A DNA stretch of 64,000 nucleotides from Blasia pusilla (Eukaryota), in NCBI GenBank assembly GCA_050084515.1, contig CM114271.1, forward strand, positions 23,188,001 to 23,252,000, given 5' to 3'. Positions 1 to 54,359 of this stretch are shown piece by piece. How positions within the stretch are numbered: position 1 is the first letter of the stretch; each line of letters opens with the position of its first letter. The translations under genes and the position numbers were made by a program. The notes under the pieces are model-generated. The model was not told where the DNA came from. It was given only the letters and a program-made list of their open reading frames with translations, and searched no databases.

Positions 1-157
1 CTGGAGTAAAGAGGGACTGATAAAAAAGAAAACGTGATCAGACAAGACGATAATTGAAGCAAAAGATATTTAGCTGTTAGGAGTAAAGAGGAACTGGCGC
101 ACCCATGTCCCTTCATTTAGATCCTAAATTTGAGAATCCGAGAAGCTGCACCCCTCC

Positions 158-3100
158 CAACCCGTCGGAATTCGACAGGTTGCAACTCTTGCAACCCGTC
201 GGAATCGGATGGGTTGCACCCCTTGCAAGCAAGCTCACCATAACAAAAGAAGGATTTTGAGAAGTGATTCCATTCGGCCCTGCACCCTTTGAGAATCCAA
301 TAGGATGGGAATCCCAAATGGCAATCCGACAGGTAGTAGGAATCCAACACGTCTTAGAGAAGAGAAAAGCCTAAGACTCGTTTGACGATAATATGGGAAC
401 GAGCCAAAAGTGAAGAAGCCCGTCAGAATGCCTCAAAAGTTGGACTAACAGTGAAAGAGTCCGATCACTCAAGCAGCCAACCTGTCGGAATCCGACAGGT
501 TGCCTGAAAGTGGTTAAAATATTGTGAGAAGTTGCAACCCGTCGGAATCAGACGAGTTGCAAAATAAACAGTCTGAGTAGATAGACCAACACAATCGACA
601 AGACCAAAAAAGATATTCAGAAAAATTTTACAAACACCATCATGGATCAAAAAATTCTTGTCCTTTATTACATCCGAGGGAAGCTCGGAAATGTACATTT
701 GATCTAGTCTATGATTGCTTCATCCTCGTCACCTGCAAATTTACTCCTAACTCTCCTAGGTTCCTATACAAAAGGAATGTCCTGGGATACAAGTGGCTCC
801 TTTGGCCGATTGTAGACGGGGATCGAAAATGTTGGGGAATTCGAGCGCCTTGGCTCCCCCTAGGTACACCATAACGGTCCCATGTAACCTGATTTGAGTC
901 CCACCGCCTTCCTTGGCAGTAAATATTGTACGCTCTACAAGGTGACACCCATCCCGTATCAATATGTGCTTCGTCATAAAAAACCAATCCCTTCTCCAAA
1001 ACGCTTCACTCAAGCTGGGTCCTTTAGTTCTTTGAACTCACTTGTCATTTTCCGAGAGCTCTTCTAGAATTACTATCGGCCTTGCTCTCCCGATTTTCAG
1101 AATAGTGGAAAGTGACGATGGTGTCACTACCAATAGTGGGTCTAGAATCGGAGCTCTCAGCTTTGGAGGAGAGTTGTATATTCCCTTCCTCCAAGTAAGG
1201 GGGTCCTATCTTGCATGTAAATTCCCGGGGGGGGGGATTGTATAAACTATCTAAGATGTACCCATCGGAGCATGGATCGACTGGATCCAAGATCCGGAAT
1301 ACTTAGAAGTTGTGCTTGGGCCTTACAAAACAATAAACAAAGAAGTGGTCCATCTGTAAAGAAGCACGTTGGAAACAACGCCAACAAAAAGAAAGAGCTA
1401 CTTGACCGTTGGTCGACTCTCAATATGGTGACACAATGTGCAACACGTCCATAGTGCATTCTAGTCCCTGTTGATTACTAATCCATAAGAACTTGGCCTA
1501 AAGTCCTAACAGTAGAGCAACTTGTCGGAGTCCGACGGGTTGTTTTACAAGTGTAATTGTTTTTTTTTGCCATGAGCAACCCGTCGGAAGCCGACAAGTT
1601 TCTGGCTTAGAGCAACCCATGGTTGGCTAAGAGCAACCCGTCGCTTTCAGACGGGTTGCATCACTCCAGAAACACAAGGAAAAGCACAAGTACCCGTCGG
1701 TTTCCGCTGGGTTGCACTCACTCAGTGGAGACTTATGGTAAATTTGCAACCCGTCGCTTTTAGACAGATTGCAACACCGCAGCCACAAGCTCTTGGGATC
1801 CGATGGGTTGCATGTAGAGATGCAACCCGTCAAAGCCCGATGAATTGAATTTTGATTAAGATCCCTTACCCGGACTTGATTCGTCGCCGATCGGAGTGGA
1901 TACTCGTTCTTGATGACCTATGATTGCGCCGTCCTCCACTTCAGCGACCTCTTCACGCATTGAAGGTTGAAGAGCTCATCCTCGCTCCCTCTAGTCAAGA
2001 CCAAGAAACAACCCCTGTCACTCAGATAAGCGTCTGCAAAAGAAAACAAGTGCGCGATCTGGTCATAGGTAAGAGGGACATTCCAGTCTGGGACAAGTGT
2101 TAGACGGATTGTTGTCCCACAAGCAAAACCTAGAGGGCAAATATGCAATGAGGAGATCCACCGCCACCTCCTTAACCACCCCATGGACCGTCTAGGGAGC
2201 ATGCCCGTTTTGTTGAAGTTTTCGTCCCAGCATGGTCAATTTTTTGATGGCGGGTATCGACTCCTGAAATTGAAGCTTTGCAGCTCATCCACAAGATTCG
2301 TGAAGTGAATGAGGACCTTTGTCCTGGTTGTTGTTTCTCTATGTTTTCCCAAGGATGATGGAGTGTATTCCGCATCCTTAAATGCTCCTTGGAACGAACC
2401 AGGCGCCTCCCGCTTTCGCTTCTCCCAAGTCTGCGGTCGGCTTGTGGGAGTCTTTGTTACCTCAGACTCAAATGGAGTTTTCTTGGCAGAGGATTTGGTC
2501 TGGCCCTCTCGCCCCGCTCGCCTGGACGATTCCGCCTCTTGCCTTGAGATCTCAACCTCTTTTCTGGAAGAGTCGGCCTCAGAATTTTTCCACGTACCTG
2601 CATTCTTACAATTGATGAGGTACCTGTACACCATCCGTTGGGCAGCTCTTTGTTGAGATGAATCGGCCGCCTGCTCCTGAAGATCCCGCTTCTTCTTTGC
2701 AAAATCCCTTTTTTTGGCCTCAATTTCTTCATCCAGGTCTGTCTGAGGGAGGATGTGATTCTTGAACATCATCTTGAAGTCTGGGTTTTTCGTGTTTTTC
2801 GTGGGCTTGTCTCGGATGTCATCAAGCCATAGTTCAAAATCTTTTGCACTCTCTAGGTTTGCTTCCTTCGGAACTGGCTCTATCTTCTTCAGCTCTGCTT
2901 GAAGACCCACGAGCATGGACTTCCCGAGAAGCCACAACACGTCCCAAAATGACCATTCACGTAGCCAATGGGAGATCACTGGATCAGAAACTCCCGGAGG
3001 ATGGTGTGCCGCCCTCTTTTGGGCCTATGTGCCCTCGAGACTGATTTTCATCAGTCGGATTCTCCTAAACTCAGAAATTCCAAACAGTGCAAATGTGTGA

Positions 3101-4322
3101 ACGCGATCCAGAGACACTTTCTCGCCGATCCGACCATGTGGATCTTTGTCTCTCTTCCGCTGGCACTTGATCATCGCCTTGAGCTTCTTGTAGAATTTCG
3201 GGCCAAGTTTGGGGTTCAGAATGGAAATATAGCGCTATATCTTGCTTGCAGTGTATTTCGTAGCTGCAAAAAGTGCAACCTGGTTAAACTTTGCACGTTC
3301 AGATGCACACACGTTCTCCCTTTGCTCTTGTTCCAATGAAGCGCTCTTCTTTGCGGCCTGGATCTTCGACCAACAAAGGATTGTGACGGCTGCATCTTGG
3401 GAAATGAAGGTATTTGCCCAAGTCTTCATTTTAATTTGAGTCCCCTTTGCCACCATCTCATTTACCAGAGCGTCGTCCAAGAACCCCTTGTACTTTGCCA
3501 GGTGCGTCGTAAGCACCTTTTTCATCTTGTCGCAATCATGGATCCAGTGGTGGGTGACGTTCCCCTTGGATACAATCTTGCACATCCAAACACACGCTAA
3601 GAATTGTTGCAAGCTACAGGGTTCCTGCAACCCGTCGGACTCCGACTGGTCGCAACACCTGGTGATCGAAATGGTAGCACAGAGAAAAATATTGCAACCC
3701 GTCGGGGTCTGACGGGTCGCAACACCTTTTTTCTGTTTCACTTATTGCAACACTGACGCAAATTTTGAGAGATAATTGCAACCCATCGGAGTCCGACGGA
3801 TTGCACTCGGATTTTTGATTGTCTAGTTACAACCCGTCAGACTCCGACGGGTTGTAAGATGATTTCGATTCGAAGACTGGTTTCCAGGAAAAAACTACAC
3901 ATATCAACCCGTCAGAGTCCGACAGGTTGCGCAATTTTTAGTATAGCTAGAATTGGATGCCTAAAAGCAAGCTCTCTTACTCTGACCACCTACCCGTGGG
4001 GGCAAATGCAACGCGTCAGAGTCCGATGAGTTGCTTTCGGCCAAAAATATCCCAAAAATAGCGGACAGTCTAGCAACTTGTCGGACTTCGACGGGTTGCT
4101 TTAAGGCATCCGATGATTTTTTACCACTAGTTTAATAACTCGTCGAAGTCCGATAGTTTGCAGAACATATACATCATGCACTCATTTTTACACCCGTTGA
4201 TGGTGGAGTGGTTTCGGTATCCCGGCTTTCTCTAGTGTGCTTGGCCACCAAGAAACCCGTCGGACTCCGACGGTTTGCTTGAAGCTTTCCAATTATGCAA
4301 CCCGTCTGACACCGACGGGTTG
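158..4322. repeat. Dispersed 29-bp palindromic repeat, consensus TGCAACCCGTCGGAnTCCGACGGGTTGCA, about 20 degenerate copies in clusters at 158-561, 1517-1847 and 3626-4322
   Basis: Copies read directly, e.g. 191-218 gcaacccgtcggaatcggatgggttgca, 533-561, 1632-1659, 3626-3654, 3693-3721, 3777-3805, 4073-4099, 4296-4322. Spacers are unique and irregular. Confidence 0.93.
1040..3620 (-). pseudogene. Decayed spliced gene with a long N-terminal coiled/low-complexity region and a C-terminal beta-class N6-adenine/N4-cytosine DNA methyltransferase-like domain, probably TE cargo
   Basis: Manual translation across frameshifts gives VDLLIAYLPS (2132-2161, motif IV-like), then PDWNVPLTYDQIAHLFSFADAYLSDRGCFLV, an in-phase GT-AG intron 1869-1354, HAR*DPL (1197-1217, motif X-like), ILDP/TIGSDT (1120-1148, motif I-like) and KIGRARPIVILE. 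The order IV..X-I-II is that of beta-class MTases. Confidence 0.5.
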
Positions 4323-4354
4323 AAGCAATCAAAATTAAGGAAGAGGAAACTTAC

Positions 4355-6635
4355 GTATTCATGGCATGCAAAGGATTACAAGTCCTTTGAGGCCTCTATC
4401 TCTGTGAGAGAGAAGTATCCAACCTTTCAAGAGTTAGTTCCTCTGTTGATCAGTGAAGAGATGCGCCTAGTAGGCAACGGTAGCTCGTCTAGTCTGCAAG
4501 AGAGTGCGCTATTTGCAAGTTATGGATCAAACACAGGCAGGGATCGTGGCATAAACTTCCATGGTCGTGGTGGATATCAAGCATATGGAGGAAGAGACAC
4601 TCAATATAACGTCACTCAATCAACTACGAACCAGTATCAAACACAATCACAAGGTGGTGATGGTGGAAACCGTTGGGGTTGAGGTCAGCAGCAGAGGGTC
4701 CTTGGATCTTGCAATTACTATAAGATAAAGGGTCACTATGCAAAGTTTTGCTTCAAGAAGAAGTTAGATATGAGAACAGGAGCCTTGCAGCAACAAAACT
4801 ATGTGGAGCAACAACACCAAGAGCAGTACCAAGAACAACAACATTCACAAACGGAGCATCTCTTGGTCATGACTCATCATATAGGAGCAATGGTCAAGAA
4901 AGACTCGACAATAGATTAGTACATTGACTCTGGTGCATTAAATCATATGACCTCACAAGCTAAATAATTCAATAGTTTGGAGCCGATGAAAGATCCTGCA
5001 ATTGTGCTCAGAGGAGATGACACTCAACATCATATCACGCATACCGGTAAAGTTCCAATAGCATCAGATGGTCTTTGTGCTCTTGAAAATGTTCTCTATG
5101 TTCCTACCATTGCAAGAAATCTGATCTCTGTAGGACACATAGTAGAACAAGGTTATCAAGTGAAGTTTAACGTAGATGGTTGTTTCATTGAAACAATAGA
5201 TGACCAGACTACGATATCCAAAGGAACTAGATCTAGCAGAATGTTCAAATTAGATGTTTCTATGCCAGTGATTCAAACAACAAGGAATGGTCAAATCCGC
5301 CAACAAGTCACAGATCTAAATGGTCGGCATAAAAGAATTGGACATATGAATCTTCAAAGATTACAAAGTCTTTCATCATCTAATATAGTAATAGAACTCC
5401 CTAAATTAGCGAGTCTTGCTACGTTATAGGTATGTCCTGCTTGCCTATTTGGAAAACAAGCTAGATTTCCTTTTCCAAAGCAAGATAGAAGAGCATCCAA
5501 CATATTGGAGTTGATCCACAGTGATGTGTGGACAACATCACAACATAGCCTTAGTGATTGCTAGTACTTTGTTTCACTTATTGATGACTTCTCTAGATAT
5601 ATAGGGGTATACTTTCTGAAAGCCAAGTCATAGGTATTCTCAGTGTTCCAAACATTCAGAGTTCTAGTAGAGAAGCACACTGGACAACACATTCTGAAAT
5701 TGCGTTGTGATGGAGGATGAGAGTATCTTTCAACAGAGTTTGATGACTATTTTCATCAGAATGGCATCTAACGTCAAGTGACTTGCCGTTACACTCCACA
5801 ACAAAATGGAGTGGCTGAGAGGAAGAATCGAAATATTATTGAAGCGGCACGAGCTATGCTGAATGAGAAGAACATGCCTAAGGTGTATTGGTTAGAGGCT
5901 GTAGCATGTGCAGTCTTCTTAATAAACCAAACTCCTACAACAAGAGTTCATAATAAAACTCCATTTGAAGTCTTCACAGGAAGTAAACTTGATTTTTCCT
6001 TCTTGAAAGTATTTGGCTGTATTTGTTATGCTCATGTTCCTTCTCAGAGACGTCAGAAATTAGACCCCAAGTCTGAAAGATGTATCTTCATTGGTTATGC
6101 TTATGGAACTAAGGGATATAAGTGCTACATTCTATGCTCTAAGCATCTTATTATTAGTCGGGATGTTGTCTTTGATGAGCTAAAGTCACGGTATGCTCCA
6201 TCTGAGCCTATTCCACCTCTAAACTTGTCTGGTGAGGGGGAGAATATGACTACAAACCAAAAAACATTATCTTCAACTTCCCTAAGTACTAGTGCAGGAT
6301 TAGGAGAGGTCCTGGATTCATAAGTTAAATCTATGAGTCCATGGACGGGAAGAGTACATATTCAGTCTGTTGACACTAGTCAGAGCTCGGGTCAGGTGTC
6401 AGAGGCATCTACCTCTGAACAACAACTTCGTAGATCAAGTAGAGTTACACATCTAGTTCATAGATTCATAAATGAAGGTTTCCTTGCGACATATCATGCA
6501 TATATGATGACTATCCTTCAAGAGCAGCAACCGAGTTTTTCTGAAGAAGCTGCGAGTAAAGCCGAATGGATTGAAGCTATGGAGGAAGAGCTTGCTGCAT
6601 GAAGACATCAACAAACATGGGAGCTGATTGATATA
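4355..6635 (+). mobile_element. Ty1/Copia retrotransposon fragment (gag C-terminus, protease, integrase, start of RT), inactivated by stops
   Basis: Zinc knuckle CNYYKIKGHYAKFC; protease *YIDSGALNHMT; HKRIGHMN; IHSDVW, DDFSRY, TPQQNGVAERKNR; KLDPKSERCIFIGY; WIEAMEEELAA*RHQQTWEL. PR-INT-RT order is Copia. Confidence 0.95.
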
Positions 6636-52619: not shown

Positions 52620-53988
52620 GCCATCGAGCTCCAATCGCATCTCGCTGACTCGGGCATGGATTATGACTCAACCCATCTGCATCTTGATTGAGCATTCCTG
52701 GTCTATGTACCACCTGAAAATCATACTCTTACAACAACAGAGCCCATCTCGCAAGCTTCCCCGTAAGCTTGTCGGACTCCATCAAGCACTTTAGTGGTTG
52801 ATGATCAGTGATGAAGGTAAAGGGATTGCCGAATAACTAACACCTGAAATGCGCGACAGCCCACACTGCAACCAAGAACTCACCCTCATACGAGCTGTAC
52901 TTCGTGTCTGTAGCGATGTTCGAGCAGCTAGCGTAAGCCACCACAAACTCTGTACCCTCATCATCATGTTGGGTGAGCACCGCTCCAAGCCCCAACATGC
53001 TCCAATCTGTGTGCAACTGGAAAGGACGCCCCCTCATCGGACTCCTCAAGATGGGCGCGGACGTCAACCTATCCTTGAGCAACCGAAATGCTTTCTCTTG
53101 CTCATCCCCCCAATGCCACTCGTGATCCACCTTGGTCAGCAAGGTTAGCGGCTTCGCAATCAAACTGAATCCCTTGACGTACCGCCGATAGAAGTTCGCC
53201 AATCCCATGAATGCGCGAACACGGCTCACATCTGTAGGGCGTGGAATGCGTGAGATAGCCTCTACCTTTGTCTGCTGAACACCAAGGCCCCCTCGGTATA
53301 TCGTATGACCCAAGTACTCAATCTGGTCGTAGAAGAACTTGCACTTGCCAGGATGTAGCTTTAGCCCATGTTATTGCAATCGTCAAAACACCTCCTCTAG
53401 ATGTCGCTCATGCTCCTCAACCGTGGCGCTAAAGACTACGATGTAATCAATATAACACCTAGCAAAATCCAAATGAGCCAAGATCCTATCCATGACCCTC
53501 TGAAACTCAACCGGGGCGTTCTTTAACCCAAATGGTAAGAACGGCCACTGGTACAAACAATCCTTCCCGTGAGGATCGATGCCCCTAAATGCCGTCTTCT
53601 GCCTGTCCTCCAATGTGATAGGCAGCTGATGGTATCCGGCTCGCAAATCCAATGAATTGAAAACCTTTGCACACATCCGCCTATCCGTCCAAGTGCCATG
53701 GACATCCTTCTTGGCGGGCATGACAGTGGCAGATGGATACTCCCCATGCAACATCTCCACTAGTCCTGCTCCAACCAAGTCCTGGCTCCTACTCTGAATC
53801 AGAGCCCTGTCCATATCATTGTGCCTATAGGGCCGTCGAAAGATTGGCGTATCACTCGACAACTCAATGCGGATCCCTGGTCCCTTCAACGTACCCAAAT
53901 CCTCCATGCTAAACGCAAAGCAGCTCCTATAACTCCTGAGGAATTGATGTATTCGGCGCCGCTCTCCTCCTCTAAACTTAGGGCCCAT
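52620..53988 (-). pseudogene. Gypsy reverse transcriptase and RNase H
   Basis: LDLRAGYHQ, KTAF, LPFGLKNAP, CYIDYIVVFS (YxDD decayed), FMGLANFYRRYV, LHTDWS..LGAVLTQ, YSSYEGEFL, QDADGLS. Confidence 0.95.
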
Positions 53989-54359
53989 ATCTGGCTCCCA
54001 AGTCTCTATCGTGACTATGGTAGGACTCTCCGGCGCGGATATCAGTGGTTGCTATGGTGCAACCCCGTCTCAAACAACAATACTTGACCGCTCTCTTACA
54101 GCCAACTGTAAACTCTGATCTCCTCTACATGCAGTGCCCGGAACCACGCTCGATGTTGTGGCTATCATCTCCAGGCGTACCTGCAAAACATCCCAAGAAG
54201 TCCAAGGGTGTCTCTCTTGATCTCCCCTAGTGGACCTTCTCGGGTCTTGGCCCCAGCCACTGCCTCCACCGTCTTGGTAGGAATGGGGCTCACCAACACA
54301 ACTGGTGTGATCTGTCGCGATCTCATCCGACGCTGCTCAGCCACTCCCAAGCTAAAGAT

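Follow-up and report, generated by a model that had tools for sequence, protein, structure and literature searches.

DNA amino-methyltransferases of the PF01555 type are very rare in eukaryotes, where the bdelloid rotifer enzyme N4CMT and the Marchantia enzyme MpDN4MT1 each opened a new epigenetic mark. N4CMT (PMC8885841) and MpDN4MT1a/b (10.1101/2021.02.12.428880) are precedents for horizontally acquired PF01555 enzymes; they are encoded by single or tandem host genes, carry SPPY or TSPPY in the catalytic loop, and have shown activity. In the DIRS1 retrotransposon (PMC4738411) and in the Dam-LTR elements (10.64898/2026.05.21.726589), prokaryote-type adenine-methyltransferase-like domains of other methyltransferase groups form part of the polyprotein of a repeated element. 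Land plants have few N6-adenine methyltransferases according to a 2015 review (PMC4738411), and fusions of a ParB fold to PF01555 are common in phages (10.1101/2025.10.10.680097). Here we analyse a window of 64,000 nucleotides from Blasia pusilla (contig CM114271.1 of assembly GCA_050084515.1, positions 23,188,001 to 23,252,000; all coordinates below are those of the window), in which the minus strand between 3630 and 1041 is, with a probability of roughly 0.78, a dead, 5'-truncated copy of a gene from an old, high-copy repeat family whose intact relatives in the liverwort Riccia carry a beta-class-like methyltransferase domain.

The decayed reading frame runs from about 3630 to 1041 on the minus strand and carries all of the peptides from which a sequence-only reading of the window had proposed a decayed, intron-containing beta-class methyltransferase at 1040-2330. 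The frame reaches up to about 3630, so that the feature is larger than had been proposed, and the long N-terminal extension suggested at the time was traced in this same frame by phmmer, by tblastn and by a profile hidden Markov model (HMM) of the family. Between about 3630 and 1918 the read-through frame is broken by stops alone (3237-3235, 3027-3025, 2238-2236 and 1920-1918); the pseudogene as a whole contains four in-frame stops, at least one frameshift and one GT..AG intron (Table 1), which bears out the proposed decay. The peptides were all found on the minus strand where they had been placed: VDLLIAYLPS at 2161-2132 in the open reading frame (ORF) piece 2191-2066, in a frame neighbouring the main read-through frame; W..TYDQIAHLFSFADAYLSDRGCFLV in the piece 2235-1918; S*VIKN across the stop at 1920-1918; DHFFVYCFVR inside 1419-1303; HAR*DPL, APILDP and KIGRARPIVILE in the shared frame of 1205-1038; and TIGSDT inside 1302-1045. 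Searched with the family HMM in all six frames, the window gave four colinear pieces that cover profile positions 264 to 921, and the first 263 positions left no trace anywhere in the 64 kb, which indicates that the copy is 5'-truncated. Self-comparison of the window identified no second copy of the gene within it.

Protein searches matched the upstream part of the pseudogene. The read-through translation of this frame (P0001), compared exhaustively by phmmer with 1.84 billion representatives, identified 32 relatives at E <= 1e-3, of which 16 reached E <= 1e-10 (best 9.5e-18), and the best stretch was query residues 5-267 in all relatives but one. The tblastn matches extend over 3630-2590, and the family HMM gave three colinear pieces in the upstream part (E 2.4e-15, 1.3e-11 and 1.4e-7). 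Two of the stops, both TAG (3237-3235 and 3027-3025), lie within it, and the third, TGA at 2238-2236, lies just past its lower end. We looked up 20 relatives: 11 are named, all 11 as hypothetical proteins of Riccia sorocarpa, and the other nine are encoded on contigs of 1-7.5 kb in Logan, ENA or JGI. With the C-terminal domain of P0037 as query, 22 longer proteins were found, all from Riccia; counting cluster mates, the Riccia gene models number at least 36, and many are fragments. The full architecture is seen in the longest relatives, P0044 (1,244 aa), P0036 (1,207 aa) and P0002 (1,191 aa); intact relatives of about 1,200 aa consist of an N-terminal W-D-G-N-H-R region, a helical domain, a long charged linker and a C-terminal methyltransferase-like domain of about 270 aa, with the W-D-G-N-H-R stretch some 800 residues before the last of these. 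Residues 330-488 of P0015, used as a query for a closer full-length relative, returned P0015 alone.

In the relative P0004 the helical domain is modelled as all-helical (pLDDT, the predicted local distance difference test, 70-92), residues 1-253 of the model being unfolded, and Foldseek identified no PDB counterpart of the helical domain at E <= 0.001. Seven of the contig sequences (P0010, P0011, P0013, P0020, P0021, P0023 and P0024, from Logan, ENA or JGI) are divergent homologs of the helical domain alone, 24-30% identical to Riccia P0036, and have in common the blocks W-Y-S-x-x-M-T, G-L-D-R-x-R-x-F, Y-H-H-P, W-L-x-x-W-S-x-W, R-x-K-R-x-V-x-R-F and S-M-Y-P; the helical domain thus occurs beyond Riccia.

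Eleven relatives retain the C-terminus, and PF01555 is the top Pfam match of the C-terminal domain in 10 of them (E 3.3e-6 to 0.11); P0055, in which motif I is lost, has no PF01555 match. Two relatives carry PF01555 in a precomputed table, and the same residues match the PHROGs DNA methyltransferase phrog_3008 (E 8.7e-7) and the NCBIfam DNA methyltransferase PRK13699 (2.9e-5). Compared with PDB sequences, the family profile had a sole match, weak at E 0.86, to the beta-class adenine methyltransferase M1.HpyAVI, in two colinear blocks of which one is motif I. The predicted structure of the P0037 domain led Foldseek to the same enzyme (1e-5), then to CcrM, M.BceJIV and M.MboIIA, with 20 matches at E <= 1e-3 and with the rotifer N4CMT (1.8e-3) and METTL3/14 in further rows. 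In a comparison with 48,161 chains by VIA-align, ranks 1-19 were all permuted amino-methyltransferases (Z 9.3-7.0, 137-179 residues, root mean square deviation 3.5-5.1), and N4CMT was again among the matches (Z 7.4); the top of both structure searches thus holds permuted amino-methyltransferases only, of the beta class and of the MT-A70 group. With the caveat that the model is weak, we take the predicted beta-class-type fold as established for the family, and the domain probably descends from beta-class DNA amino-methyltransferases.

Motif I, which is glycine-rich and of the type that binds S-adenosylmethionine, is well preserved and present in all 15 relatives that reach the region, as D-[F/L]-x-x-[G/E]-W-G-x-[S/T] followed by ..C-C-I-x-x-E; its fullest form is G-D-I-V-I-D-F-A-G-G-W-G-A-S/T, with small variants. 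The catalytic-type loop of the Riccia relatives lies about 170 residues before motif I, which is the permuted order, and its tetrapeptide in 19 relatives is DLPT (5), DMPT (5), DLPS (5), DMPS (2), DIPT (1) or DMPI (1); in P0015, DLPT is followed by H. Bacterial and phage beta-class enzymes (M1.HpyAVI, CcrM, M.MboIIA, M.PvuII, M.RsrI) share with the family the position of the loop before motif I and the alignment of motif I and the acidic strand to PF01555 positions ~165-219, and provide the best structural matches. They differ in the loop itself, (D/N/S)PP(Y/F/W) as opposed to D-[L/M/I]-P-[S/T/I], and in having H-P-x-x-K-P before motif I where Riccia has K-C-x-G-F; the Riccia domain, moreover, is the tail of a eukaryotic, intron-bearing, multi-copy protein. 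Two other methyltransferase groups were rejected. For MT-A70 (METTL3/METTL4/MTA1) there was no PF05063 match, the loop is not DPPW, and the METTL3/14 and MTA1 structures rank below the PF01555 enzymes. For trimethylguanosine synthase the motif order is reversed, motif I of TGS1 being N-terminal to the catalytic loop, and no cap-methyltransferase Pfam family matched at E <= 10 or E <= 1.

In the window itself, the putative first half of the domain (2170-1870) stands far above chance, and in sequence comparison the result is highly significant. Aligned globally to the Riccia profile with frameshifts allowed, it scored 38.7, compared with -22.2 +/- 5.2 for dinucleotide shuffles, none of 150 of which reached that score (z about 12); the local score was 37.1, compared with 13.1 +/- 1.7 and none of 200. 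Each of the two alignments requires one frameshift near 2094. The piece 2235-1921 scored 18.6 bits in hmmsearch (E 1.2e-4), and tblastn with the Riccia singleton P0015 matched two frames, 2209-2090 and 2094-1867 (E 1.4e-10). Within VDLLIAYLPS, which resembles motif IV, the tetrapeptide is YLPS at 2143-2132, and the same exon holds the frameshift near 2094-2097, the block ..YLSDRGCFLVL.. and the stop at 1920-1918, a TAG. Among paralogous whole-genome reads, one base is missing at 2095 in 71 of 300 and at 2097 in 36 of 204, which fits the frameshift that the alignments need.

The second half of the domain in the window, including a candidate S-adenosylmethionine (SAM)-binding motif, is weakly supported by sequence comparison. 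Exon 2 contains DHFFVYCFVRPKHNF, APILDP as the proposed start of motif I and KIGRARPIVILEE as the proposed motif II, together with in-frame stops and probable frameshifts; its ~105 codons fit the 112 remaining profile positions, and it ends at the stop 1040-1038. A global frameshift-aware alignment of 1353-1041 to profile positions 117-228 scored -16.2, compared with -32.4 +/- 5.9 for shuffles, 1 of 150 of which reached that score. In this alignment APILDP stands opposite D-I-V-I-D-F and KIGRARPIVILEE opposite the strand after motif I, and no switch of frame between ILDP and TIGSDT occurs. The join of ILDP to TIGSDT, which the sequence-only reading had proposed as motif I, we do not endorse, GSDTIVTFHYS being paired with the G-R-D...N-Y-N block of the family and not with motif I; for this call and for HAR*DPL the statistics are weak, and both depend on a putative compensated pair of frameshifts. 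Motif I and the acidic strand of the window are tentatively APILDP ... IVILEE, and the permuted order is secure in its first half and, at 1/150 shuffles, colinear but weak in its second. At the proposed frame switch lies a run of nine C/G (1226-1238), and two bases are missing at 1227 in 124 of 837 genomic reads, which indicates that indels at this homopolymer vary among copies.

The intron between the two halves had been placed correctly. It has GT at 1869-1868 and AG at 1355-1354 and begins after a complete codon, and the resulting junction (..NQVR / MDHFF..) coincides with the alignment position of a 34-aa insertion in Riccia P0050 and P0051 and with the end of P0015; compared at the sequence level, the insertion and the end look like retained or mis-called introns. 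RNA reads of other copies match exon 2 and cease to match at 1355 (14, 12 and 20 reads in three runs, agreement 0.99-1.0). Judged by eye, their non-matching continuation is open in the frame of exon 2; it may be the upstream exon of a diverged copy, or else a diverged intron. None of the RNA joints listed crosses 1869/1354, and no read in the three RNA runs covers the donor of the window copy, so that splicing of the window copy itself is only predicted.

The gene sits in an old, high-copy repeat family. We compared about 1% of one whole-genome run (12.43 million records) with window positions 1-4400 at >= 85% likeness, and 23,455 records were placed on these 4.4 kb, with a summed depth of 170-1170 per 147-nt bin. 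Of the placed reads, 57 were at >= 99% likeness, 1,592 at 95-99%, 8,056 at 90-95% and 13,750 below 90%. If the near-identical reads are those of the locus itself, the number of diverged copies can be put, as a rough estimate, at around a hundred or more. Transcription was seen in three RNA runs (235, 305 and 282 reads), concentrated on 589-1470, with a depth of 10-38 over 589-1323 in all three and with molecules that start at 663 in two. Nearly all RNA reads have the first mate on the plus strand, which, given usual stranded libraries, indicates a minus-strand transcript. Every well-supported RNA read set differs from the window, the cleanest by 2-13 differences; paralogous copies are therefore transcribed, and the window copy has no such support.

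It was also considered whether the window holds a pseudogene of an ordinary host gene family outside any repeat, for example one of 'trimethylguanosine synthase', a name that UniRef gives to P0034, P0036, P0037 and others; no transposase was recognised in the window, as would suit such a gene. The depth over the coding bins, set against only ~57 near-identical reads, and the dozens of fragmentary Riccia gene models argue the other way, as do the position of the catalytic-type motif ahead of motif I, the opposite of the TGS1 order, and the missing cap-methyltransferase match. We therefore regard this explanation as very improbable.

Several observations weigh against the reading of 3630-1041 as a copy of a repeat-borne gene with a beta-class-like domain. 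A direct Pfam scan of eight ORF pieces of the window found nothing relevant and no PF01555 match at E <= 10, and the window is only 23-35% identical to the Riccia proteins. For the window's own species, a word-based search with the read-through frame returned no protein copy, and phmmer gave no close match. In the relatives, PF01555 always matches on profile positions ~161-219 of 221, that is, in the last quarter only, and the Pfam gathering score of 26.7 is passed by one relative of 11 (P0048, 27.6), nine others scoring 12.9-26.2. The AlphaFold model of the P0037 domain is poor (mean pLDDT 50.4, predicted template modelling score 0.52, from an alignment of 19 close rows), so that the fold matches weigh less than their ranks suggest. 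None of the 19 relatives has the canonical (D/N/S)-P-P-(Y/F/W), and the window has Y-L-P-S. In exon 2, the local frameshift-aware alignment to the Riccia profile is not significant (16 of 200 shuffles reach its score), and per-frame local matches give competing placements. Finally, copy number is the sole ground for calling the family a mobile element, and with it for the large DNA transposon suggested by the sequence-only reading: no transposase, terminal inverted repeats or target-site duplication was recognised in the window, and the element runs off its left end. The assignment to the PF01555-like beta class is supported for the C-terminal domain of intact relatives, by profile and by predicted fold. 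The domain is PF01555-like and not a full member of PF01555, as its tetrapeptide fails and the Pfam threshold is barely grazed. With these corrections, the sequence-only reading was largely right. The locus itself is dead and unremarkable, and the window copy is inert and without functional importance of its own.

The degenerate catalytic residues of the window had been taken as decay. They are not simply that: all 19 relatives carry D-[L/M/I]-P-[S/T/I], which marks the unusual loop as characteristic of the family, and the window shows a further degraded form of it. By the same token, catalysis is unproven for the whole family and not only for the window copy. Intact members would bind SAM and DNA in the service of the repeat; whether the domain is a genuine base methyltransferase whose pocket is atypical or a non-catalytic binding module stands at about even odds. 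One possibility, which we put a little short of an even chance, is that by analogy with DIRS1 the domain is a non-catalytic relic through which a repeat-encoded protein binds SAM or nucleic acid. A further analogy is METTL14, whose motif is degenerate, and the family-wide D-[L/M/I]-P-[S/T/I] suits a relic. The methyltransferase-like domain of DIRS1 was itself judged inactive from substitutions of catalytic residues (PMC4738411). On the other hand, diverged paralogs strictly conserve both the variant loop and motif I, which would also fit a pocket that has changed and is still catalytic.

Alternatively, intact members may be active DNA amino-methyltransferases that place N6-methyladenine (6mA) or N4-methylcytosine (4mC) on DNA to the advantage of the repeat; the window would then hold a decayed copy of such an enzyme, as in the sequence-only reading. 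This we hold only tentatively, at a chance clearly under one half. Consistent with it are the beta-class fold and the PF01555-type motif I, the eukaryotic precedents in rotifers and Marchantia, and the retention of both motifs by Riccia paralogs whose domains share no more than 50-60% identity, which suggests constraint. Set against it, the second-proline position and the aromatic residue of the tetrapeptide are missing in all 19 relatives, and changing S and Y of the SPPY in N4CMT to alanine abolished activity (PMC8885841). Active intact members would be a candidate source of 6mA or 4mC in bryophyte repeats; if they are inactive, the family would be the second case after DIRS1 of a mobile element that keeps a dead methyltransferase fold.

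Compared with the described systems, the family shares with N4CMT and MpDN4MT1a/b a PF01555-type domain in a eukaryote, in the latter case also a liverwort. It differs from them in its architecture, in its variant loop and in its dozens to hundreds of copies. Closest in concept, by analogy, would be the methyltransferase domains kept by DIRS1 and Dam-LTR, from which it differs in that the beta-class domain sits in a separate spliced gene; no reverse transcriptase is attached to the methyltransferase-like gene, either in the window or in any relative that was scanned. Our literature search found no published description of a multi-copy, transcribed, repeat-borne liverwort family with a beta-class-like fold, and we regard the family as an undescribed, repeat-borne, beta-class-like methyltransferase variant in liverworts, whose members are filed as hypothetical or are mis-named.

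A more far-reaching explanation, which we consider quite improbable, is an undescribed liverwort mobile-element family whose ~1,200-aa protein would come from a phage-type ParB-fold/N6_N4-methyltransferase fusion or be kin to the DUF3723 proteins of Starship elements, with a remodelled D-L-P-T pocket that writes or reads a DNA mark on the element's own copies. DUF3723 is a conserved cargo of fungal Starship elements. The lead comes from the W-D-G-N-H-R stretch, a region missing from the window copy, and from language-model neighbours of P0036 residues 150-345, the nearest of which are fungal DUF3723 clusters (0.96), with a ParB_N cluster at rank 27 (0.92). No Pfam match to ParB_N (PF02195) or DUF3723 (PF12520) was found at E <= 10 in 18 members, a PDB profile search with the N-terminal alignment gave one chance-level match only, and the model of P0004 left this part unfolded. 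If true, a PF01555 enzyme would have been recruited independently for a third time to the chromatin biology of eukaryotes, and this would be the first such case in land plants that is carried by a DNA repeat.

Table 1. Features of the window discussed in the text
Feature	Coordinates	Strand	Basis
Four ~27-nt palindromes	157..562		pattern scan
3' untranslated region, transcribed in paralogous copies	663..1040	-	RNA depth
Second exon, putative second half of the domain	1041..1353	-	length fit, global alignment
Intron, GT..AG, 516 nt, phase 0	1354..1869	-	splice signals in sequence
Seven ~27-nt palindromes inside the intron	1517..1850		pattern scan
Putative first half of the methyltransferase-like domain, exon up to the donor	1870..2170	-	tblastn, hmmsearch, frameshift-aware alignments
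Upstream part of the pseudogene: helical domain (~3630-2800) and K/E/R-rich linker	2239..3630	-	read-through translation P0001, phmmer, tblastn, HMM
Eleven palindromes directly upstream of the point where family homology ends, abutting the Copia-like gag/pol	3627..4325		pattern scan
Copia-like gag, Pol beta-barrel, gag-pre-integrase and integrase SH3 domains	4236-6323	+	Pfam scan
Gypsy-type reverse transcriptase and RNase H ORFs	52837-54051	-	Pfam scan

The gene is flanked and interrupted by 22 copies of a ~27-nt palindrome of the GCAACCCGTCGGA-N-TCCGACGGGTTGC type, often ~57 nt apart, all of which lie in 157-4325 (Table 1), and no copy was found in the remaining 59 kb of the window. A scan that allowed up to 3 mismatches gave 14 matches, compared with 0 expected. 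In genomic reads the arrays are highly repeated, and 393 reads have a loose end at 3619 and match only from there upward, which indicates that the array at 3627-4325 occurs also apart from the gene. These arrays could be the element's own subterminal protein-binding repeats, placing the gene inside a foldback- or CACTA-like DNA transposon. The confinement of all 22 palindromes to the surroundings of the gene favours such an arrangement, as does their inverted-dimer arrangement of a 12-nt unit, which recalls the subterminal repeats of En/Spm. We nevertheless consider it unlikely, given that no CACTA-type (CACTA/TAGTG) termini bound the clusters, that many genomic reads match the arrays without the gene (through the loose ends at 3619 and through array-array joints), and that one array is intronic.

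In the 3' region of other copies, 715-998 is replaced by ~36 other letters in most genomic copies (241 reads), and in many genomic reads (227) position 975 is joined to position 318, a sign that the 3' region of those copies is rearranged or in tandem. The window as a whole is rich in repeats and has a eukaryotic character. Among 20 further large ORFs scanned against Pfam, only retrotransposon domains were identified. On the other side of the gene, the Copia-like gag ORF begins right after the last palindrome, near 4370, so that the Copia-like element is seemingly 5'-truncated or interrupted.

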